31,191 bases of DNA from a candidate division WOR-3 bacterium (lineage in GTDB: Bacteria > Hydrothermota > Tepidihabitantia > SM23-42 > JAOAFX01). Below are positions 12,335-24,574 of this stretch, in pieces (positions within the stretch are counted from its first letter, which is position 1; each line of letters opens with the position of its first letter). The stretch lies in the NCBI GenBank assembly GCA_037444665.1, contig JBBILZ010000030.1, positions 1-31,191 on the forward strand, written 5' to 3'. Below the pieces are notes generated by a model. The model ran no database searches, was not told where the DNA came from, and worked only from the letters and a program-made list of their open reading frames with translations. A program made the position numbers and the translations under genes.

Positions 12335-12457
12335 TATTGACCTCCTTTTTCTATTTATTCAATTATTTCAAGGCTTAAACATATAATCTGATGAGCAAAG
12401 TTTTATGCATCAGTGACCATATTAAAAAATTATAGTAATAGTTTAGCCACTTAAATT

Positions 12458-12544
12458 GTAGTTGCTTGATTTATCAAGCACCAAAAAGAGCCCACTGCTC
12501 CGTCCCGATGGGACGAGAGTCCCTTCGGGAAATTGGGCAACTAC
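12458..12544. repeat. REPIN-like inverted pair of GTAG REPs with nested mini-hairpin insertions
   Basis: GTAGTT-GCTTGAT-TT-ATCAAGC (12458-12479) faces an inverted GTAGTT-GCCCAAT-TT copy ending at 12544. The second copy is interrupted by CGTCCC-GAT-GGGACG and TCCC-TTC-GGGA hairpins. Confidence 0.7.
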
Positions 12545-12620
12545 ATTGATTTAATTCCATTTTTTAGAGTGGCTAACCTCTTATAAATTATAGTCTTTAG
12601 ACAAAATTTATATTCTCTAT

Positions 12621-14346: not shown

Positions 14347-16751
14347 GACTCAGCATTGGGGATGAGGTTCCTCAAGAAAAAACATTTCAATTTGTTATAA
14401 AAAGAAATGGCAAAACAGTCGCTTTTGATAAATCAAAGATTGCCAATGCAATATTCAAGGCAGCACGAGCCGTAGGTGGGGAAAATAAAAAGATTGCTGA
14501 AGCACTGGCTGATGAAGTCGTGCTATTCCTTTATACACTAAAAGGTGATAAACCACCAACCGTTGAAGAGATCCAGGATGCAGTAGAAAAAGTCCTCATT
14601 GAAAATGGTAATGCCCGCACTGCCAAGGCATTTATTCTTTATCGTAAACAGCGTGAGATATTGAGAAAGAAGAGGATGCTTGAAAAAAGACCCGAAGAAA
14701 GAGAGACAACAGATTATGCCTTATTTGTTAGAACCTCGGATGATGATTTTGTCTCCTGGGACCGTTCAAAAATTGTTGATGCCTTGTTAAACGAAACAAA
14801 TATGGATAAAGAGACGGCAGAAAAAATTGCCCGGGAAACAGAAGAGACAATCCTTAATTCAAATGTTGAATTATTATCATCTGCGCTCATTCGTGAAATT
14901 GTGAATATGAAATTGATTGAACACGGACTGGAAAATGCACGTTTGCGCCATATGCGACTTGGTGTGCCTCTTTATGATGCGGAAAAGATCATACTCTATG
15001 CCAATCGCGAGAATGCCAATATTCCCCATAATCCTGAGGCAACAAATATGACCCTTGCTGAGACCATAAAAAAACAGTATATGCTTTCAGAAGTATTCAG
15101 TCGGGAGGTAGCAGATGCCCATATCCGCGGTGACATTCATTTACACGATTTAGGATTTGGTGACCGTCCATATTGTTCAGGGCAATCACTTGAATATGTA
15201 AAGAAATTCGGATTGAATCTACCCAATGCATTGTCCATTGCCAGACCAGCAAAGCATCCTGATACATTGCTTGCCCATATGGTGAAATTTTCTGCTGCAC
15301 TGCAGGGACATTTTGCTGGTGCAATCGGCTGGGATGCAGTAAATATTTTCTTCGCTCCTTTTTTAACCGGGATGTCGGATAAAGAGATCCACCAGGTTGC
15401 CCAGATGATGGTATTTGAATATTCCCAGCAATCAGTAGCACGGGGTGGTCAGGCGATATTTTCAGATTTGAATCTATACTGGGAAATTCCCAAACACTTC
15501 AGGGATGTTGATGCGATTGGACCCGGTGGAAATTATACGGGTAAGAAATATATTGATTATCTTAATGAAGCCCAGAAATTTGCCTGGGCATTATTTGATA
15601 TCTATCTTGATGGTGATGGAACCGGCCGTCCATTCTTTTTCCCAAAGCCTTTAGTTCATATCACTGAGGAGCTCTACAGAACAGAAGGCTGGCAGGACTT
15701 TCTTAATCATATTGCCGAAGTTTCTTCAAAAAGAGGGAATACCTATTATGTTTTTGACCGCGGTGAAACGGCAAAGATTTCAGAATGTTGTAGATTATCA
15801 TTTAAACTTGAACAGAGTGATATTGATGATGCCCGCACACCCTGGAAAATGCGTTATACTGCACTACAAAATGTTACGCTCAATCTACCGCGCGCGGCAT
15901 ATTTTGCCAAAGGGAATGATGAATTATTATTTAAAAAGATTGACCAGGTACTAAATTATGCAGTGCAGGCACATCTTCACAAAAAGAAGTTTATTGAAAA
16001 ACTGATTGATCTGAAGGATGAAGGTCCGCTCGCCCTTTTAACAATGGAACAGGATGGAGAGCCGTATCTCAGATTACATCGGGCAACCTATCTTATTGGA
16101 TTATTAGGACTCAATGAGCTTGTTCAGTTCCATACTGGAAAACAGATGCATGAAGATGAGATGAGTTTAAAATTTGGGTTAAAAGTCTTATCTTATATGT
16201 ATTTGAAAGTAAAAGAACTATCAAAACAATATAATATGCGGTTTGTGATGGAACAGACTCCGGCAGAATCTGCCGCACATCGTATGGCACGACTTGACCT
16301 TGAGCATTATCCGGGCGAGGCAATCTCTGTAGTAAAGGGTGATGTAAAAACCAATTCAGTTTATTATACAAATTCTACTTATTTGAATGTGGGTATTCCT
16401 ATTGACCCGATTGATAGAGTAAGGGTTGAAGGAAAGTTCCATGATATGATTGAGGCAGGTGCCCTGACCCATGTCTGGCTGGGCGAATCTCAACCTCCAA
16501 AAGAGAGCATTGCAAACTTTGTGGTCAAGACATTCAGCCATTCACGGAATGCCCAGATTGCCTTCTCACCTGAATTCACCACTTGTAATTCCTGTTTCCG
16601 CACTTCGCGCGGTCTATCAAATACCTGTCCATACTGCAAAAGCACAAAGATTGACCATATTACCAGGGTAACCGGTTATTTTAGCAAGGTCTCGGGCTGG
16701 AACAAAGGTAAAAAGGCAGAATTAAAGGACCGTTATCGGTCAATATTATAG
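14328..16751 (+). CDS. nrdD: Anaerobic (class III) ribonucleoside-triphosphate reductase with two ATP cones
   Basis: Two ATP cones, HLHDL..RPYC, ECCRL thiyl loop, QTPAES, YYTNS, CxxC/CxxC metal site, RVTGYF glycyl-radical motif. Confidence 0.96.
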   Translation: MEEKTLRLSIGDEVPQEKTFQFVIKRNGKTVAFDKSKIANAIFKAARAVGGENKKIAEALADEVVLFLYTLKGDKPPTVEEIQDAVEKVLIENGNARTAKAFILYRKQREILRKKRMLEKRPEERETTDYALFVRTSDDDFVSWDRSKIVDALLNETNMDKETAEKIARETEETILNSNVELLSSALIREIVNMKLIEHGLENARLRHMRLGVPLYDAEKIILYANRENANIPHNPEATNMTLAETIKKQYMLSEVFSREVADAHIRGDIHLHDLGFGDRPYCSGQSLEYVKKFGLNLPNALSIARPAKHPDTLLAHMVKFSAALQGHFAGAIGWDAVNIFFAPFLTGMSDKEIHQVAQMMVFEYSQQSVARGGQAIFSDLNLYWEIPKHFRDVDAIGPGGNYTGKKYIDYLNEAQKFAWALFDIYLDGDGTGRPFFFPKPLVHITEELYRTEGWQDFLNHIAEVSSKRGNTYYVFDRGETAKISECCRLSFKLEQSDIDDARTPWKMRYTALQNVTLNLPRAAYFAKGNDELLFKKIDQVLNYAVQAHLHKKKFIEKLIDLKDEGPLALLTMEQDGEPYLRLHRATYLIGLLGLNELVQFHTGKQMHEDEMSLKFGLKVLSYMYLKVKELSKQYNMRFVMEQTPAESAAHRMARLDLEHYPGEAISVVKGDVKTNSVYYTNSTYLNVGIPIDPIDRVRVEGKFHDMIEAGALTHVWLGESQPPKESIANFVVKTFSHSRNAQIAFSPEFTTCNSCFRTSRGLSNTCPYCKSTKIDHITRVTGYFSKVSGWNKGKKAELKDRYRSIL

Positions 16752-17243
16752 ATTTTTCTCTGGTTTTTTAAAAAGTTCATTAATAATTAAAATAACTGCG
16801 CTGACCGTAACAAACGCATCAGCCAGATTATAGGTAAACCATCTAAAATTACCAATGCCCATATCAATAAAGTCAATTACATATTTTAATCTTATACGGT
16901 CAAAAACATTACCCAAAGCACCACCTACAATTAAGCCAAAAAGAACCACTCTCAATTTTGTTTTTTGTGAAAGACCAATAAAAGTAAACAAAATAATACC
17001 AACAAAGTGGAGTATATAGTATAAATAAGAAGGACCGAATGAAATGCTGAAAACGCCGTATGGATTATATGCAACCCTGAATCTGAGAATTGAACCGATA
17101 AATTCATAGGGAGGGTCAAATGGGCTTAAGAAATGGACGATTAATAATTTAGTTATCTGGTCTAATAAAAATGCAATAAAGACAGGTATTAAAAAAACCT
17201 TGATATTTTTATTTGCCGGTGCATTTAATGCAGAATCTGGCAT
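16746..17243 (-). CDS. lspA: Lipoprotein signal peptidase II
   Basis: LDQITK, NPYGVFS, GGALGNVFDR, VIDFI, YNLAD. Start uncertain (35-bp overlap with dksA); 3' end overlaps the nrdD 3' end. Confidence 0.93.
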   Translation of the reverse strand: MPDSALNAPANKNIKVFLIPVFIAFLLDQITKLLIVHFLSPFDPPYEFIGSILRFRVAYNPYGVFSISFGPSYLYYILHFVGIILFTFIGLSQKTKLRVVLFGLIVGGALGNVFDRIRLKYVIDFIDMGIGNFRWFTYNLADAFVTVSAVILIINELFKKPEKNL

Positions 17244-17577
17244 AAGGTAAAATCTTCAAACGTTTTTTCTCAATTAATTTTCCACACTTCTCACAGATTC
17301 CATAACGACCCTGATGGATCTTTCTCAATGCATGGTCAATACTGAACAGGAGCTCTTTTTGGCGGGATAGATTCATTGATGATAATTCTCTTTTTTCAGT
17401 TTCAGTGCCCTGGTCTGCCATATGGTTGGAATAAGCCGAGAGGTCACCTGAGGCTTCGGTCTGGGTTGTAGAGATCTGGCCACTGTCATAATTGATCCCC
17501 TTAATGATTTTTTCCCGTTCCTGTAGTAATCTCTTTTCAAACTCTTTTAATTCTGCCTTTTTTAGCTTTTTAATCAT
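17209..17577 (-). CDS. TraR/DksA-family C4 zinc-finger regulator
   Basis: Coiled coil with HMADQGTE tip, ALRKI..G.YGICEKCG...RL..LP....CIKC. Confidence 0.9.
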   Translation of the reverse strand: MIKKLKKAELKEFEKRLLQEREKIIKGINYDSGQISTTQTEASGDLSAYSNHMADQGTETEKRELSSMNLSRQKELLFSIDHALRKIHQGRYGICEKCGKLIEKKRLKILPYARFCIKCTGK

Positions 17578-18278
17578 TATTTCTTCTCCTTCAGCATATT
17601 CAAATATGCCTTTGCCTTTATGTTTGTAGGGTCAATTTTTAAAACCTCTTCCCATTCTTTCCTTGCATTATCGTGCTTGCGCTCCTGGTAATAACATAGA
17701 CCAAGAAGAACTTTTGCCTCAAGATATTTTTTATTACGAGCCAATATATCATTGAGCAATTTTTCTGCAGATTTATAATCATTCAACTGGGTATAGGTTT
17801 TTGCCAGTTTCAATTTTATATCAAGGAATGTTGGGCTCACTTCCATTGCCCGTTGATACTCATCCCGTGCCTTTTTATACTCCTGCAATTCATAGTAAGT
17901 ATCACCGAGTTGCATATAGGTATTGGCAAGTTTTGTCTTTAACTGAGGCGAAAATCCTTTTTCTTTGGTCTCAAGGGCGGCTGCTTTTTCAAAAGATTTT
18001 ATGGCTTCATCAAATTGACACTGTTCATTATAGATGATTGCAATATTTACATATGCCTCAATGTAATTGGGATTGAGTTCTATTGCTTTTTTAAAACTTT
18101 CAATTGCAGACTTATAATTTCCCGCAAGTGAATAGGCAAGGCCCAGGGCATTATGGACATCAGGATAATCTGGATAGGCGGCAATAACCTTTTTTAACCC
18201 TTCAACTGCTTCCCTTACATTTCCTTTTTCATAGGCTTGCAGTGCTTCATTATAGATTTTTGCCATCACCTGGTCCAT
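17577..18278 (-). CDS. Tetratricopeptide-repeat protein
   Basis: About six TPR units (e.g. YPDVHNALGLAY...AIELNPNYIEAY); TAATG overlap with the dksA-like gene. Confidence 0.88.
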   Translation of the reverse strand: MDQVMAKIYNEALQAYEKGNVREAVEGLKKVIAAYPDYPDVHNALGLAYSLAGNYKSAIESFKKAIELNPNYIEAYVNIAIIYNEQCQFDEAIKSFEKAAALETKEKGFSPQLKTKLANTYMQLGDTYYELQEYKKARDEYQRAMEVSPTFLDIKLKLAKTYTQLNDYKSAEKLLNDILARNKKYLEAKVLLGLCYYQERKHDNARKEWEEVLKIDPTNIKAKAYLNMLKEKK

Positions 18279-18283
18279 AGTAA

Positions 18284-18311
18284 ATTATATTTATAATCAC
18301 CTGTTTGTCAA
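18284..18311 (-). promoter_or_regulatory. sigma70-type promoter for leaderless TPR-dksA-lspA
   Basis: Minus strand TTGACA(18311-18306)-16 bp-TATAAT(18289-18284); ATG 5 nt later. Confidence 0.8.
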
Positions 18312-18341
18312 TATATTAAAAAAACAGACCATTTTCAACTG

Positions 18342-18617
18342 GATGCTGCATACTTGATACTGGATTTTTCTGGTTTTTTCCCTCGCATTTGCTCGGGACC
18401 TTCGGCTGGTCTATTTAGTCTTTTTGGTCTGTTTAGTCTTTCTCGTCTGTCTGGTTTCTTTAGTCTTTCTGACTTCATTATTTTCTATTCCCTTTATACC
18501 CCCTTATTCCCCTTGATAACCCCTTATTACCCTTCCAATCATAGATGATACTGCGAGCGAAGCGATACTGCATCTGTTTGGTTTCATTATCCCCTACTTA
18601 CTAACTACTGCCTACTA
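18342..18617. repeat. Intergenic patchwork of degenerate short tandem repeats
   Basis: 7-mers GATGCTG/CATACTT/GATACTG (18342-18362); seven 9-mers like RGTCTNTYT (18408-18470); five CCCTT units (18490-18534); GATACTGC direct repeat (18547, 18564); CTA-type 7-mers (18594-18617). Confidence 0.7.
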
Positions 18618-19646
18618 CATATAGTTCTCAAGCAGTTCTTCTTTGTTGTGGATTGAATAGTAGAACGCTGGTATCTCCAGCATTGTTAGGGCGCCATATT
18701 TCTTTTCCTTATTTAATCGGTAGCAGGCACGGGCACAGGCAACAAGGATGTTCGCCGTTGCTTCAGGGTTGCTATCCCATAAACAATTGTATTCAATGAA
18801 TGCCTTATTATGATTTCCTGTGTTCCCAGAGAATATTACTGAACCACAATGGGGAAAGCCTTTATGCTGTTTGTTCAAATTATCCTGAGAAACAAAGATT
18901 ATTTTTGTATCATAGTCAGCAAAATAGTTGGGCATCTTTTTTATTTTATCCGCAATCTCATTTTTGTCTGCATCGTCGTGGGCAACCACATAGACGACCC
19001 GCTTGTGCATCTGCCCTGGTCTTAATACGGGATTCTTGCCCTGCCTGACCTTTTTTAAGGCACTCTTTATTGGTATAGTGTATGACCTTGCATCCAGAAC
19101 TCCGGGTACCTGTCGCACTGCATCAGAATGTCCCTGACTTATTCCTGGTCCCCAGAATGTATAATTCCTGCCTTCAGGCATAAATGCATCAGCCATAACC
19201 CTTTCCAGAGAAAAAGTACCGGGGTCCCAGCCTGCAGAGATGATTGATGTGTGCCGGTTCAATTGCGCTATACGACCTATCTGATGATAATAATCAGGAA
19301 TCCTTTTGTGTGTATCAAAACTATCCACCGTGTTAAAAAATTGGGCAAAATAGAGTCCCTGACCATGTGTATATGGATTATTTATTCTAATCTTTTCAAG
19401 TGTATTATTCTCGGTTCCGAAAATATCCTCTTTTGAACCACCGCAGAGAATTGCTACATCAGCAAGGACTTCAAATTTATCCATACCAAAAACAGGAATA
19501 TTTTTAACTGATTTTTTTATTGAATCGGGTCTGCGCGTTATAATCTCTGTAAGTTCCATATCACTATTTTTATTGATTGCTTCTTTTACGCCCCGAGCAA
19601 GATTTCCATAACCAACAATTGCAACTTTTATTTTACTGTTTTCCAT
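18615..19646 (-). CDS. ddh: meso-Diaminopimelate dehydrogenase
   Basis: IVGYGNL, CGGS, VDSFDTH, GWDPG, TFWGPGISQGHSDA, MPNYFADY, SNPE. Start moved to ATG 19646, behind an AAGGAG SD. Confidence 0.94.
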   Translation of the reverse strand: MENSKIKVAIVGYGNLARGVKEAINKNSDMELTEIITRRPDSIKKSVKNIPVFGMDKFEVLADVAILCGGSKEDIFGTENNTLEKIRINNPYTHGQGLYFAQFFNTVDSFDTHKRIPDYYHQIGRIAQLNRHTSIISAGWDPGTFSLERVMADAFMPEGRNYTFWGPGISQGHSDAVRQVPGVLDARSYTIPIKSALKKVRQGKNPVLRPGQMHKRVVYVVAHDDADKNEIADKIKKMPNYFADYDTKIIFVSQDNLNKQHKGFPHCGSVIFSGNTGNHNKAFIEYNCLWDSNPEATANILVACARACYRLNKEKKYGALTMLEIPAFYYSIHNKEELLENYM

Positions 19647-20960
19647 TCTTCTCCTTTTTGAATAAATCATTGATTATCTTATATGCCCGCGCACAATCCT
19701 GAGATTCAACAAAGACCATAATATCAGTATGCACGGTCAGAACTTCCCAGATATTTATTTTTTCACGGGCAATAGGTGCAACAATATTTTTTATTGCACC
19801 TGGTTCATTGATAAAATGTAAACTGCGGATAACAATCTTCGCAATACAACAATATTTTTTATTGCACCTGGTTCATTGATAAAATGTAAACTGCGGATAA
19901 CAATCTTCGCAATATCTTTTTTCAAATTTAATGCCTTCAGGCTCTTGGATTTAGAAATTAATGGTGCCAATAATTTATATGCTATTTCAGCCTTCTTTTG
20001 TAAAACATATATTGCGAGAAGATTATCCGAAATCGTGATAGAATTTATCGCAATCTTTTTATGGGCAAGTATTGAGGCAATCTGATTCAGAATTCCTGGT
20101 GTCTCTGGAATCCTTTCACCAATAAAAGTGAGCACACCATAATTTTTATTAGAGGTAGTGATTGAAATTGTTTTATCAAACAAGATTTCAGTTCCATCCC
20201 TTTTTTTAGTCTTTCCATTATTAGAGATCACCCGCAGTTTTGGTAAATTTTTTCGATGTTTTAATGATATTGGGTTCAATACCTGGGCACCAGACGCAGC
20301 AAGTGCTCCGAGTTCTGCCCAGGAGAGTCTCTTTATCATTTTCGTATCTGATACAATCTTTGGGTCCATACTCAGGATACCTCCTACATCCTTTATCAAA
20401 ATTAATTCGGATGAATGCAACAATTCTGCCATTAATAGCGCAGAAATATCGCTTCCGCCCCTGCCCAGGGTTAATGTATTACCTTTTTCATCACGGGCAA
20501 TAAATCCGGGTATAATGAGAATTCTATTTTTCCTGAGCAAAGGAAGAATAAATTTTTGTGTAATCATCTTTGATTTTGAAAGAACTGAGAAATCCCTTTT
20601 TTCATTTATTTTATACGGACTAAGACGGACTTTTGATTTCAATGAAATGTGGATGGGCCATTCGGGTGCATCCGGTAATATTGTCTTTGCATCCTTTCCT
20701 AAATATTTGAATGCAGATTCAAAAATTAAAGCAGATTGAACCTCACCCATACCCACAAATTTTTCAAAATTGTAAAAATCAGGATAAGGGATTGCAGTTA
20801 TATAGGTCTTAATTAATTCGTCGGTCTGCCCTTTTATTGCTGAAGTAACCAAACAGATTTTTGAATCCTGAAATTGTAAGATACATCGGGCAATCTTTAA
20901 AAAATCTTCTGGTTCAGAAAGGACTGAACCACCAACTTTAAAAACCTTAATATTGTTCAT
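19633..20960 (-). CDS. lysC: Aspartate kinase with two ACT domains, frameshifted by a 68-bp tandem duplication
   Basis: KVGGS, TLGRGGSD, KDVGG...DPK, GAQVL motifs. Removing one repeat copy restores a 419-aa ORF ending ...EPGAIKNIVAPIAREKINIWEV...KEKNGKQ* at 19633. Confidence 0.85.
19779..19914. repeat. Exact 68-bp tandem duplication
   Basis: 19779-19846 is identical to 19847-19914 (caacaatatttttt...cttcgcaata). Confidence 0.97.
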
Positions 20961-22158
20961 ATTCAATCAATCCTTTTAAAGGTTGTTTTCTTTTTATTAA
21001 TTTTATACCATTATCAATCAGATATTCTGCGGGCAAAGGTCTTCCATTATAGGTTGATGCCATAGTTCTTGTATAGGCGCCAGAATTATGAATTAGAACA
21101 TACTCGCCAAGTTTCAGATTGGGCAGAGAATAGTATCCAAACTCATCTGCATTTTCGCAGAGCGGACCTGTAACGCGCACTTTTTTTCTCCTGTTTGAGT
21201 TAATACACAATGGCTCAATATGGTGATACGCATCATAGAGCGCAGGCCTGGGATTCTCGGTCATACCCGCATCAATCATATATACTGGTATATGATTCCT
21301 TATTTTTTTATCAATCAAACGGCTAAGAATATAGCCGGCATTTGCAACAAAAAATCTTCCTGGCTCCAGCATTATTTCTACCTCATACTTATCCTTTATT
21401 GAGCCATAACAGTCAATAATGGGTTTAAAATCAAGACGTTTTTCCTGGGGCAGATAAGGAACACCAAACCCACCACCGAGATTTACATAGTTACAATCAA
21501 AGCCATTTCTTCTTAGTAAATTTATTGTCTGCCCAACCTTTTTGCTCGCCTTGATAAATGGTTCTGGAGATAGTATTTGAGAACCAATATGGCAGTGGAT
21601 ACCGACCAATTTCGCATATCTGAATCTTTTTATTAATGAAAGACTTTGTTTTATCTCTTGTATTGTCATCCCGAATTTGCTGAATTTAGAGCCAGTAGAA
21701 AGATGCGGATGGGTTTTGGAAAAGATGCCAGGGTTTATGCGGGCAAAGACATTTATTTTTCTGGCGCGCATCTTTGCTGCTTTTTCCAGGAGGATTGCCT
21801 GGTCAATGCTTTCAAAATTAAAATAAATTACACCATTATCAAGTGCATATAGAATTTCTTCTATCTTGCGTGCGACATTATTATAAAGAATTTTATCTGG
21901 ATTGAAACCCGCTTTAAGGCAGACAAAAATTTCACCGGGTGAGACTACCTCAGCACCAATACCCTGGCTTTTTATCAATTTTAATATAGCGATATTGGTG
22001 TTCGCCTTTACGGCAAAAAAGAGTTTGGCAATTTTCAAAAAATGCTGCTTCAATATCTCAATATTTTTTATTATCCTTATTCGGTCATACACATAGCAAG
22101 GTGTTTCAACCGTTTCTTTTTTAAGATACCTGCGCAATGTTTTTAGGCAATCCTGCAT
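20947..22158 (-). CDS. lysA: Diaminopimelate decarboxylase
   Basis: AVKAN PLP lysine, SKFG, HCHIGSQ, GGGFG, EPGRF, GPLCE, GAY...YN. Start moved to ATG 22158, behind an AGGAGGT SD. Confidence 0.95.
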   Translation of the reverse strand: MQDCLKTLRRYLKKETVETPCYVYDRIRIIKNIEILKQHFLKIAKLFFAVKANTNIAILKLIKSQGIGAEVVSPGEIFVCLKAGFNPDKILYNNVARKIEEILYALDNGVIYFNFESIDQAILLEKAAKMRARKINVFARINPGIFSKTHPHLSTGSKFSKFGMTIQEIKQSLSLIKRFRYAKLVGIHCHIGSQILSPEPFIKASKKVGQTINLLRRNGFDCNYVNLGGGFGVPYLPQEKRLDFKPIIDCYGSIKDKYEVEIMLEPGRFFVANAGYILSRLIDKKIRNHIPVYMIDAGMTENPRPALYDAYHHIEPLCINSNRRKKVRVTGPLCENADEFGYYSLPNLKLGEYVLIHNSGAYTRTMASTYNGRPLPAEYLIDNGIKLIKRKQPLKGLIEYEQY

Positions 22159-22192
22159 AATACCTCCTCTCATCTATCAAAAAAATGGCAAT

Positions 22193-22218
22193 AAAAAAGC
22201 CCACCTGCTGGTGGGCTT
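22193..22218 (-). terminator. Intrinsic terminator in the lysA leader (attenuator)
   Basis: Minus strand AAGCCCACC-AGCA-GGTGGGC-TTTTTT, between the promoter and the lysA SD. Confidence 0.9.
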
Positions 22219-22258
22219 ATCGTCCATAAAACTGTTTATCATGGGAACGAAAAGCCCA
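22212..22258 (-). promoter_or_regulatory. Antiterminator hairpin, mutually exclusive with the leader terminator
   Basis: TGGGCTT/AAGCCCA, TCGT/ACGA and CCATGA/TTATGG helices sequester the terminator's 5' arm. Confidence 0.8.
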
Positions 22259-22307
22259 TCCTTAGAACATGCTTCTTCATCCAATATCTCTTAAAATATT
22301 TTAGCAT
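22239..22307 (-). CDS. Leader peptide of the lysine operon, MLKYFKRYWMKKHVLRMGFSFP (22 aa)
   Basis: ATG 6 nt after the -10 box; four Lys codons including tandem AAG AAG; the stop codon lies inside the antiterminator's 5' arm. Confidence 0.75.
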   Translation of the reverse strand: MLKYFKRYWMKKHVLRMGFSFP

Positions 22308-22313
22308 GTGCTC

Positions 22314-22341
22314 ATTATATATATTTTTCAAAAAAAGTCAA
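22314..22341 (-). promoter_or_regulatory. sigma70-type promoter of the lysA-lysC-ddh operon
   Basis: Minus strand TTGACT(22341-22336)-16 bp-TATAAT(22319-22314). Confidence 0.8.
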
Positions 22342-22480
22342 GCAATATTTTCGCCAGGTTCTTTAGCCTTTTTATTCCTTTTCTCATTCAGGTAATTTGG
22401 TATCCAGATATCCATCAGGACAAGTTTTGGACTTTTAGGTATTTTAATTTTATAGGGCAGATGCTGCTGGTATGGTTATA

Positions 22481-22508
22481 TTGACATGGTCTAAAATTTC
22501 AATACAAT
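22481..22508 (+). promoter_or_regulatory. sigma70-type promoter for the leaderless clostripain gene
   Basis: TTGACA(22481-22486)-16 bp-TACAAT(22503-22508); in-frame GTG at 22514. Confidence 0.7.
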
Positions 22509-22513
22509 TTGCT

Positions 22514-24574
22514 GTGCGTTTTCTTATTCTCCTGTGCATCCCTTTCACCCTTTTCTGCCGTGAATGGACCGTGATGGTATATATGGCAGCAGACAACTCT
22601 CTCAGTGCACTGGCTGACTCAGACCTCATTGAAATGAAAGCCATAGGCTCAAATGATGAACTTGCCATCATTGCTCAGGTTGATAAACCTTATATTGGAG
22701 CAAATCGCTATTATGTAGCAAAGGATACACTTTATAATTTAGCCAATTTAGGCACCATTGATATGTGTGACTGGCAAACACTCAGTGATTTTCTCCAGTG
22801 GAGTGTAATGTATTTTCCTGCCAAAAAATATCTACTTATTCTCTGGGACCATGGCACAGGCTGGACATTAGGACCCCATCGCACTTTTGGTAGTGATTGG
22901 TCTGCCGGTACAGAGATGAGTATTGCCAATGGAGACTTGAATCGGGCATTAAAAGGTTTTTATGATGCTACAAAAAAGCATCTAAACATCATAGGCTTTG
23001 ATGCCTGCAATATGCAACAGATTGAGATTGCCTATGAGATAAAAGACTATGCAAAGGTCTGCCTTGCACCACAGACTGTCTGGCCCTTAAGTGGGTTTCC
23101 CTATGAATCCATTTTTTATATCTTCAAACAAAACCCTGATATAAATGAGAATGAACTGGTAAAAGAAATTGTTAATAGATGTAGAGAATATTATACTACA
23201 ACTATTGCTTCAGCAATCTCGGCAATAGACCTTGAGAATCTAATTGATTTGAAAAATGCACTGAAGAATCTTGAAAAGATTATGCAGAATCCTCCTGATT
23301 CAGGAATGAAGAATTTAAGGGCTCAGGTCCAGACCATATCCCTTACTGACCCGAATCCAGAAACTGAGGATGATTACATTGACCTTGGTGATTTTCTGCG
23401 TTTGCTAAAGGATTATAATACAAAAAAAGAGTATCAGGATCTGTATAATATTTACAACCAGACCATCATTGCCACTGCATCATGGGGTGCTCAACTTTCA
23501 CGGCTCACCGGAATAACGACATTTTTTCCTGACCGTTATATTGAATTTAAAAATTTAATAAACATTTATCTGTTATTAGACTACAATGAATCGGGTTGGG
23601 CAAATTTTCTTAACTGGTTCTATGGACAGGATGATATAAGACCCACCTGTCCCATAGTTTCAGTGAGTGGTATGGGAAAAGATAATGACTTCACGCTATG
23701 CTGGAACCGCTCATTTGACCTTGCCTCGGTTTTCTATAATGTGATTGAATTGACCGATACTCTATTACTATTTGATGACCCGTGTGAGGATTCAAGTTTA
23801 TGGCTCTTCAATGGATTTTCGCTGGTTAAAAATATCAGCCATAGTGGTACAGGCTCTTTCTTCTCAGGGAATAGTAGTAATCTCAATAATTCATTGATCA
23901 CGAGAACGAATTTGAAGATAGACAATTTAGCCCTGCTTGATTTGTATCTGTTTTATAATACCGAAGAAATGGCTGATTCCCTGATTATTGAATATGGTGC
24001 AAAAAAATATGTATATTATGGCAGGTCTGGAACATGGCAGCATTGCCGTCTTGTTCTGCCTGAAGGAAATGAGCCATTAAAAATTTATTACCATTCTAAT
24101 GGAAGTATTAATAATGGCGGTGTTTATATTGATGATATAAAATTATATGGACTCGTTTCCGGTAGAAATATTCGTAATAGTTATTCTGATACTACGCTAT
24201 ATATATTCAATAAATTAAAGGGTGAATATTACTACGGAGTCTATGCCGAGGATTTTTATGGGAATCAGAGTGACCTATCAGAATTGGTAAAGGTCAATGT
24301 AACAAATTTTGCTATTCCCTATTCAATACCGAATCCATTCCAAAAAGATTGTGAGATTGTTCTTGACCTTCCTGATAATGTGATGCCGACCGTCTATATC
24401 TATTCCATTGCGGGTCGGCTCATCAGAAAATTTGAACCCTCTTCAATTGTTAATAAAAGAATATTCTGGGATGGGAAAGACAATAATCACAAAGATGTGG
24501 GTGCAGGAATATATTTTATTCTTGTAAAAGATAAAAGATTTAGCGTGATGGGAAAGATAGCGAGGCAGAAATGA
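22514..24574 (+). CDS. Secreted clostripain-family (C11) cysteine peptidase with C-terminal FlgD-Ig/T9SS-type sorting domain
   Basis: WTVMVYMAADN, ILWDHGTGW (His), GFDACNM (Cys), YIDLGDF, C-terminal PNPF...IYSIAGRLIR...WDGKD...GIYF. GTG 22514 gives a signal peptide; the ORF track start at 22472 lies upstream of the promoter. Confidence 0.88.
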   Translation: MRFLILLCIPFTLFCREWTVMVYMAADNSLSALADSDLIEMKAIGSNDELAIIAQVDKPYIGANRYYVAKDTLYNLANLGTIDMCDWQTLSDFLQWSVMYFPAKKYLLILWDHGTGWTLGPHRTFGSDWSAGTEMSIANGDLNRALKGFYDATKKHLNIIGFDACNMQQIEIAYEIKDYAKVCLAPQTVWPLSGFPYESIFYIFKQNPDINENELVKEIVNRCREYYTTTIASAISAIDLENLIDLKNALKNLEKIMQNPPDSGMKNLRAQVQTISLTDPNPETEDDYIDLGDFLRLLKDYNTKKEYQDLYNIYNQTIIATASWGAQLSRLTGITTFFPDRYIEFKNLINIYLLLDYNESGWANFLNWFYGQDDIRPTCPIVSVSGMGKDNDFTLCWNRSFDLASVFYNVIELTDTLLLFDDPCEDSSLWLFNGFSLVKNISHSGTGSFFSGNSSNLNNSLITRTNLKIDNLALLDLYLFYNTEEMADSLIIEYGAKKYVYYGRSGTWQHCRLVLPEGNEPLKIYYHSNGSINNGGVYIDDIKLYGLVSGRNIRNSYSDTTLYIFNKLKGEYYYGVYAEDFYGNQSDLSELVKVNVTNFAIPYSIPNPFQKDCEIVLDLPDNVMPTVYIYSIAGRLIRKFEPSSIVNKRIFWDGKDNNHKDVGAGIYFILVKDKRFSVMGKIARQK

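Follow-up and report, generated by a model that had tools for sequence, protein, structure and literature searches.

We report a putative attenuator in the leader of a lysine biosynthetic operon (lysA, an aspartate kinase gene and ddh) on contig JBBILZ010000030.1 of a candidate division WOR-3 bacterium (assembly GCA_037444665.1). The window is the whole stretch of DNA that was analyzed, 31,191 nucleotides (nt) long; all positions refer to it, and the leader and operon lie on its minus strand. We propose that the leader is very probably, taken as a whole, an attenuator of the trp type in which a translating ribosome decides between termination and read-through. With good but clearly lower confidence, we propose that this attenuator is specific for Lys and senses Lys-tRNA by means of a leaderless leader peptide, which is encoded by a 22-codon upstream open reading frame (uORF) with two tandem Lys codons. 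The sequence and its comparison with relatives show the parts of the leader, that these are conserved, which helices exclude one another and how the elements are spaced, and from this we infer that the uORF is translated and that the operon responds to lysine. An earlier note on this DNA had described the promoter, the ATG, the uORF, its AAG-AAG pair, the terminator and an alternative hairpin, and on re-reading the sequence their coordinates were exact. The gene order it had given, lysA-lysC-ddh, likewise agrees with the NCBIfam models by which the downstream genes were named, as these identify lysA, an aspartate kinase and ddh. The features are collected in Table 1.

The conservation of the leader was examined by searching for lysA in 40 related genomes and the window's own. 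Of the 11 other genomes in the genus, 10 had an ortholog with 68–97% identity; the one without is 85% complete. Nine of the ten orthologs are preceded by a full leader; for the tenth (L010), the contig ends 81 nt before lysA, and the tail of the uORF and the terminator are kept. Leaders were also sought in public contigs by a motif scan, which returned 110 and 105 stretches from two collections, nearly all of them chance matches. Ten of these stretches had a terminator behind the motif, and the removal of four duplicates left six new leaders, all of which precede a lysA homolog. The alignment analyzed here contains 16 leaders, ten found via lysA homology (henceforth the unbiased leaders) and these six unique ones.

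The uORF has been maintained as a reading frame in the relatives. There are no insertions or deletions from its start to its stop in the alignment of 16 leaders, and its stop codon occupies one fixed column as TGA (eight leaders), TAA (seven) or TAG (one), at a constant distance of ten codons from the Lys pair. In a single sequence, an open frame with two Lys codons is not beyond chance. Across the relatives, however, the uORF frame is open in 16/16 leaders and the other two frames in 0/16 and 1/16, and this exceeds chance. In the unbiased leaders, variation is uneven along the frame. Codons 9–12, which encode W-M-K-K, are invariant, and 13 of the 15 positions in codons 13–17 are variable. In codons 2–8 the variable columns number six, four and two at codon positions 3, 2 and 1, respectively, and the residue changes upstream are conservative, with K/R exchanges at two sites and Y/F at one. 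The Lys pair is written AAG-AAG in all ten of these leaders, while the adjacent Tyr codon alternates between TAT and TAC. AAG is the minor Lys codon in this genome (31% in long open reading frames, or 11,671 AAG versus 26,373 AAA), which has two genes for tRNA-Lys(UUU) and one for tRNA-Lys(CUU). Pairing with the 5' arm of the antiterminator (region 2) accounts for the G of the second AAG, which forms a G-C pair, but not for that of the first, which forms a G-U pair where an A would pair too. It is possible, though unproven, that the minor AAG codon is preferred as the sensor.

The position of the ATG relative to the promoter suggests that the uORF is translated from a leaderless transcript. 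The leader promoter scores 11/12 and is the second-best promoter motif within 16000–23500. The ATG at 22307 is 6 nt past the -10 hexamer, and there is no purine-rich Shine-Dalgarno (SD) sequence between the two. In all leaders the distance from the end of the -10 hexamer to the uORF ATG is 5–8 nt, again with no SD sequence. The transcription start is predicted to coincide with the A of this ATG or to lie only a few bases from it. The genome has 610 strong -35/-10 motifs, and for 200 of them an open reading frame of at least 100 codons begins 5–9 nt past the -10 hexamer. The start codons number 84, 53, 30, 21 and 12 at 5, 6, 7, 8 and 9 nt, respectively, against a background of 1–12 per 5-nt bin at distances beyond 25 nt from the -10. 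Judged by these counts, an ATG six bases past the -10 hexamer is an ordinary gene start in this organism. Since leaderless starts are common genome-wide, translation of a uORF without an SD sequence is credible.

Downstream of the Lys codons, the leader can form two hairpins that exclude one another. The terminator, with the core GCCCACC..GGTGGGCTTTT, has a folding energy of -16.5 kcal/mol and is the best terminator within 16000–23500. The possibility that it is the terminator of an upstream gene was ruled out: the upstream neighbor, a clostripain-like gene at 22472–24574, is on the plus strand and divergent, so the terminator belongs to the 5' leader and ends no other gene. The alternative hairpin, at 22258–22212, has 17 bp and a folding energy of -20.9 kcal/mol and would act as an antiterminator. 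The predicted fold of the 158-nt leader has an energy of -43.6 kcal/mol, lower than that of all 200 shuffled sequences (z = -3.07). A terminator was found in all 16 leaders, with energies of -15 to -19 kcal/mol compared with -17 to -24 kcal/mol for the antiterminator. When the 17 antiterminator pairs were examined in the alignment, 90.1% of cells were paired, versus 37–53% when the partner was slid by 1–3 columns. Four of the pairs have compensatory changes on both sides, and the covariation score of 0.122 (versus 0.083) was matched by 0/500 shuffles. Because the leaders are kin and not independent of one another, we consider this covariation moderate rather than strong evidence for the antiterminator. 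To the two hairpins described in the earlier note we add a third predicted helix, in which region 2 pairs with region 1, a segment that includes the W-M-K-K codons.

The spacing of these elements agrees with the dimensions of a ribosome. In 16/16 leaders, region 2 begins 14 nt past the second Lys codon; the earlier note had put the antiterminator 13 nt past this codon with the stop codon inside it, a geometry that is correct (13–14 nt). Ribosome positions were modeled by folding transcripts cut before region 4, the distal terminator arm, under a 29-nt ribosome mask, and the antiterminator was counted as formed at 12 or more pairs. With the A site on K11 it forms in 16/16 leaders, as it does with the A site on K12. 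Moving the A site to the stop codon abolishes it (0/16), at most one pair remaining. In nascent RNA extending up to the stop codon, 4–13 region 1:2 pairs are predicted.

We propose the following mechanism. Transcription would begin at the uORF ATG or a few bases away from it, and a 70S ribosome would load on the 5' end without an SD sequence. When Lys-tRNA is plentiful, the ribosome would reach the stop codon inside the antiterminator and cover region 2; regions 3 and 4 could then fold as the terminator, and RNA polymerase would stop at 22193. When Lys-tRNA is scarce, the ribosome would stall with AAG-AAG in its decoding center, where it covers region 1 and ends just before region 2. Region 2 would be left free to pair with region 3 as the latter emerges, and the resulting 17-bp antiterminator would block the terminator and allow the operon to be transcribed.

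Support for codon sensing comes from other leaders built on the same terminator. Of 49 genomes of the order, 14 contain the terminator core, at 28 places representing 26 loci; a reversed-pattern control gave 0. Eleven of these loci are lysA leaders and 15 are others. All 15 of the latter have a leaderless uORF of 24–46 codons, and in all 15 the last uORF codons pair with the 5' arm of the terminator at -20 to -34 kcal/mol. These leaders fall into several types by the residues that they encode (Table 1). The asparagine synthetase A behind an N-K-N-K leader scores 386 bits against a cut-off of 309, and the 2-isopropylmalate synthase behind a type D leader scores 640 bits against a cut-off of 532. 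The GCS2-like ligases have 490–492 residues; one was scanned, and the other two are alike at the N terminus as judged by eye. For the type C leaders, the small downstream open reading frame, of at least 50 codons (63–81), is listed in four of the six cases, and in the other two its start and SD sequence were recognized by eye. The pairings of Lys with lysA, Asn with asnA, and Ile, Leu and Val with leuA are what a codon-sensing device would predict. The N-K-N-K leaders are candidate asparagine attenuators, and their association with the GCS2-like ligase hints that this enzyme may belong to asparagine metabolism. The terminator motif occurs once in the window's genome.

The ribosome-coupled model put forward in the earlier note is supported by conservation in the genus, the compensatory changes, the footprint folds, the leaderless starts and the pathway-matched paralogs. 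Three of the checks that the note had named have now been carried out. Alignment of the lysA upstream regions of relatives showed that the uORF and the position of the Lys pair are conserved and that the antiterminator stem has compensatory changes; folds constrained by a ribosome footprint gave the antiterminator with the ribosome on the Lys codons (16/16) and not on the stop codon (0/16); and an Rfam scan found neither a lysine riboswitch nor a T-box in the leader.

Several observations weigh against a Lys-specific attenuator or limit the evidence for it. The six leaders from public contigs were found by a pattern that demanded the W-M-K-K codons, which leaves ten unbiased leaders at this site, and these ten, all of a single genus, are not independent of each other. 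The Lys codons number only two, and both lie within pairing region 1. This region is purine-rich and bound by its complementarity to region 2, and would read K-K, R-S or E-E depending on the frame; by our estimate K-K would arise from the structure alone with roughly a one-in-three chance. Regions 1 and 2 are 94% paired in the 16 leaders, but their columns are near-invariant and the helix has no covariation support; nor has the terminator, which is itself nearly invariant. In several leaders it is the codons right after the Lys pair, not region 1, that pair with region 2. When no ribosome was placed on the truncated leader, the antiterminator formed at equilibrium in 16/16 leaders, so termination without a stalled ribosome has to be brought about by a ribosome that sits on the stop codon or by kinetic trapping of the 1:2 helix. 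Plain codon sensing requires neither an invariant W-M nor the conservative exchanges of K/R and Y/F, and this conservation of upstream residues leaves room for an effect of the nascent peptide. Among the paralogs, the small open reading frame behind the type C leaders is followed by a sensor-like gene in five cases and by an aspartate kinase gene in one, with no obvious biosynthetic gene. Finally, the window's genome lacks a second such attenuator in two scans for terminators before genes (8 and 22 candidates), and a scan of 58 leaderless short open reading frames in the same genome found no second one either.

The most serious alternative, which we consider unlikely, is that a ribosome drives the switch but that lysine alone is not the signal. 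The leader would then respond to translation speed, to several amino acids (Tyr/Phe, Trp, Met and Lys) or to arrest by the nascent peptide. Eight consecutive residues, F-(K/R)-(R/K)-(Y/F)-W-M-K-K, are kept and form a candidate arrest motif in which the K/R and Y/F exchanges alter bases and keep the chemistry. A ribosome stalled at any of about codons 8–12 would free region 2, and from pathway knowledge the operon's aspartate kinase also feeds Met and Thr. On the other hand, Lys is the only residue repeated in the sensing window, the first and last genes of the operon are lysine-specific, and the bases of W-M-K-K are also accounted for by their pairing with region 2. The paralogous leaders also speak against mixed signals, as they carry the amino acid that matches their gene, Asn for asnA and Ile/Leu/Val for leuA. 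A bolder variant, to which we give little credence, is that F-(K/R)-(R/K)-(Y/F)-W-M-K-K arrests or slows translation from within the exit tunnel and tunes or senses lysine much as TnaC does tryptophan. Lys would be read through the minor AAG codon, and the leader would be one module of a lineage-specific kit in which the reading frame is swapped on one scaffold for the Lys, Asn and branched-chain pathways.

It is considerably less likely that the uORF is incidental and that the leader works as an RNA switch under the control of a small molecule or RNA-binding protein. Such a switch would explain the high conservation of the bases in codons 5–12, as in an aptamer or a protein-binding site, and the same genome appears, by eye, to use a riboswitch of the S-adenosylmethionine (SAM) type with a terminator. 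However, the sequence upstream of the antiterminator is just about 50 nt long and weakly folded; the frame and the positions of start and stop are kept in 16/16 leaders despite three different stop codons; and the paralogs retain the architecture of the reading frame rather than the sequence of the lysA leader. No riboswitch or T-box of Rfam was matched either. The lysine riboswitch (RF00168) gave no match in the window or in the whole genome, which is 99.5% complete, in a search that matched 4 of 14 control genomes. The T-box was absent from the 12 matches up to E = 10 in a permissive scan of 21900–22800, and none was found in the window at the gathering threshold. The leader matches no Rfam family at its gathering threshold. 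Below it, Trp_leader (RF00513) scores 25.4 bits against a threshold of 41 and Phe_leader (RF01859) 27.2 against 55, and these similarities are mostly due to the terminator.

Least likely of all is that there is no regulator here but a gene that encodes a small protein and has its own terminator, or a leaky constitutive terminator with a chance reading frame: a 22-codon frame with two Lys codons is unremarkable in one sequence at 38% GC, but the C-terminal codons are fixed by RNA pairing where the middle five are free to vary, the antiterminator overlaps the terminator and shows compensatory changes, and no separate promoter motif for lysA is present between the terminator and the lysA SD sequence.

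The leader has a narrow distribution. In the sister family (L012–L017), 6/6 lysA orthologs, with 56–59% identity, are without leader or terminator; in 6/6 a -35/-10 motif lies 7–9 nt before the lysA start, and lysA itself looks leaderless. A covariance model built from the 16 leaders matched 10 of 49 genomes of the order, with strong matches only in the genus and eight weak ones elsewhere in the order. Of 151 genomes sampled from the phylum it matched four, which all belong to the genus. In two leaders (L008 and L200) the terminator and the lysA SD sequence are separated by an inserted segment of about 70 nt that contains a C-rich/G-rich palindrome, and a similar element lies upstream of the promoter in a third (L002).

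In the operon itself, ddh likely starts at the ATG at 19646 behind AAGGAG; the longest open reading frame begins at 19670. The aspartate kinase gene contains a perfect 68-bp tandem duplication (window 19779–19914; 2.0 copies, 100% identity). It shifts the frame such that the gene has 391 codons versus 414–421 in nine orthologs of the genus, and what remains of the C-terminal ACT region can still be read, in a different frame, as far as the ddh SD sequence. Either the duplication arose in the assembly or the regulatory domain is truly truncated. A separate promoter for the gene that follows ddh lies at 18311–18284 and scores 12/12. With its site at window 18311–18278 (minus strand), this TPR gene exemplifies the leaderless mRNAs that appear dominant in the genome. 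A structured repeat of about 150 nt lies at window positions ~12433–12583 on the minus strand, with an inner hairpin, a T run and outer inverted arms. It has more than 30 copies in the genome at 72–95% identity, often upstream of genes, and matched no Rfam family in the window scan. Two further elements in the genome were noticed by eye. One, at ~37700–37936 on the plus strand of contig C3, resembles a SAM riboswitch with a terminator before a 398-codon gene. The other, on the minus strand of contig C38, consists of a Cys-rich small open reading frame and a terminator before a 434-codon gene, and looks like the precursor of a peptide that is synthesized ribosomally and modified post-translationally (a RiPP).

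Table 1. Features of the lysA leader and operon in the window, and paralogous leaders on the same terminator scaffold in genomes of the order.
Feature	Position or loci	Strand	Details
-35 hexamer TTGACT	22336..22341	minus	TTGAC invariant in 16/16 aligned leaders
-10 hexamer TATAAT	22314..22319	minus	16-nt spacer to -35; TATA[A/C]T in 16/16 leaders
Predicted leaderless 22-codon uORF, MLKYFKRYWMKKHVLRMGFSFP + TGA	22239..22307	minus	no SD sequence; stop at 22241-22239
Tandem Lys codons AAG-AAG (codons 11-12), proposed sensing codons	22272..22277	minus	invariant in 10/10 leaders found via lysA homology
Region 1, W-M-K-K codons and next base	22271..22282	minus	pairs with region 2 in the minimum free energy fold; possible anti-antiterminator
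Region 2, 5' arm of antiterminator	22239..22258	minus	last 6 uORF codons and stop codon
Region 3, 3' arm of antiterminator	22212..22229	minus	last 7 nt form the start of the terminator 5' arm
Intrinsic terminator (regions 3:4)	22193..22218	minus	9-bp stem, 6 GC, 4-nt loop; stem-loop 22218-22197; six-T run ends at 22193
lysA SD sequence GAGGAGG	22163..22169	minus	
lysA, diaminopimelate decarboxylase	20947..22158	minus	ATG at 22158; TIGR01048, 357 bits versus cut-off 298
Aspartate kinase gene (lysC-like)	19791..20966	minus	overlaps end of lysA; E = 5e-67, below equivalog cut-offs
ddh, meso-diaminopimelate dehydrogenase	18615..19646	minus	TIGR01921, 342 bits versus cut-off 181
M-(R/K)-D-N-K-N-(K/Y) leaders	4 loci (L260, L261, L270, L279)		before asparagine synthetase A (1) and GCS2-like ligase (3)
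V-N-K-K-D-N-N-Y leader	1 locus		before aspartate-aminotransferase-like gene, below equivalog cut-off
Ile/Leu/Val-rich leaders, type D	3 loci		before 2-isopropylmalate synthase (2); in the third, a small open reading frame, then an isopropylmalate-dehydrogenase-like fragment
Ile/Leu/Val-rich leaders, type C	6 loci (L266, L271, L272, L275, L276, L282)		before a small, very basic open reading frame of no known family
N-D-N-D leader	1 locus		leaderless uORF

If the proposal is correct, this would be the first leader-peptide control of a diaminopimelate/Ddh lysine operon found in our literature search, and the 26 loci would constitute a family of leaderless attenuators in an uncultured lineage, in which one terminator scaffold has been re-aimed at different amino acids. 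For annotation, the uORF and the terminator should be added, and the sequence before lysA should not be taken for a long untranslated leader. No new principle is involved, as leaderless leader peptides and lysine leader peptides both have precedents.

Operons of the diaminopimelate/Ddh route to lysine are normally controlled by the lysine riboswitch or by protein regulators. The lysine riboswitch (L-box, RF00168) occupies the same niche as the present leader, since it is the RNA element that usually controls lysC, lysA and dap genes, through premature termination, but its 182-position aptamer would not fit into a leader of about 115 nt in which the switch is preceded by about 50 nt. In the Thermus thermophilus alpha-aminoadipate lysine cluster, Lys codons in a leader peptide are said to govern read-through; the pathway there is a different one from the diaminopimelate/Ddh pathway here, and the lineage differs. 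The polycysteine uORFs of mycobacteria form a system that reportedly works without a pair of intrinsic terminator and antiterminator, whereas the present leader has a strong, conserved terminator. According to the account in bioRxiv 10.1101/834739, these mycobacterial uORFs are leaderless and act as attenuators, with codons that match the amino acid of the downstream operon. In Sinorhizobium, a small open reading frame that contains Thr and Lys codons and precedes a gene for aspartate dehydrogenase is described as a proposed leader peptide (PMC10117765). A term search of the main text of the survey by Naville and Gautheret (PMC2965389) returned none of the words lysine, lysA and lysC. In a literature search that left subscription journals largely outside, no lysA, lysC or ddh operon of the diaminopimelate pathway turned up with a leader-peptide attenuator.

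The closest precedent for the leaderless design is found in Deinococcus deserti, in which leaderless mRNAs are dominant and leader peptides are predicted to attenuate genes for amino acid biosynthesis and tRNA ligases (PMC4007540). The earlier note had suggested that a leaderless version on a Ddh-pathway operon may be undescribed, which overstated the novelty of the leaderless feature, as 14 leaderless leader peptides are reported in that species, with the mapped transcription start at the A of the ATG and in one case at -1 (de Groot et al. 2014, PMC4007540). The 14 set out in that account precede genes for the Tyr, Thr, Trp, Met, Asp, Leu, Cys and Phe tRNA ligases, trpEGD, leuC, leuA, ilvBH, DAHP synthase and asd, and none of them is for lysA, lysC or ddh. 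The present leader belongs to a different phylum and has no sequence relation to them, and its start site, unlike theirs, is only inferred.

In its architecture the leader most resembles the trp attenuator (trpL) of Escherichia coli, the mechanism of which is summarized in PMC4007540. Both have a short leader open reading frame with two tandem regulatory codons, mutually exclusive helices 1:2 (here predicted from the fold), 2:3 and 3:4, a stop codon beside or inside region 2, and an intrinsic terminator before the first structural gene. The likeness is not one of sequence or model membership, as the Trp_leader score is below the gathering threshold. In contrast to trpL, the uORF here has no SD sequence and lies at the predicted 5' end of the transcript, its regulatory codons are for Lys, and the operon behind it consists of lysA, an aspartate kinase gene and ddh.

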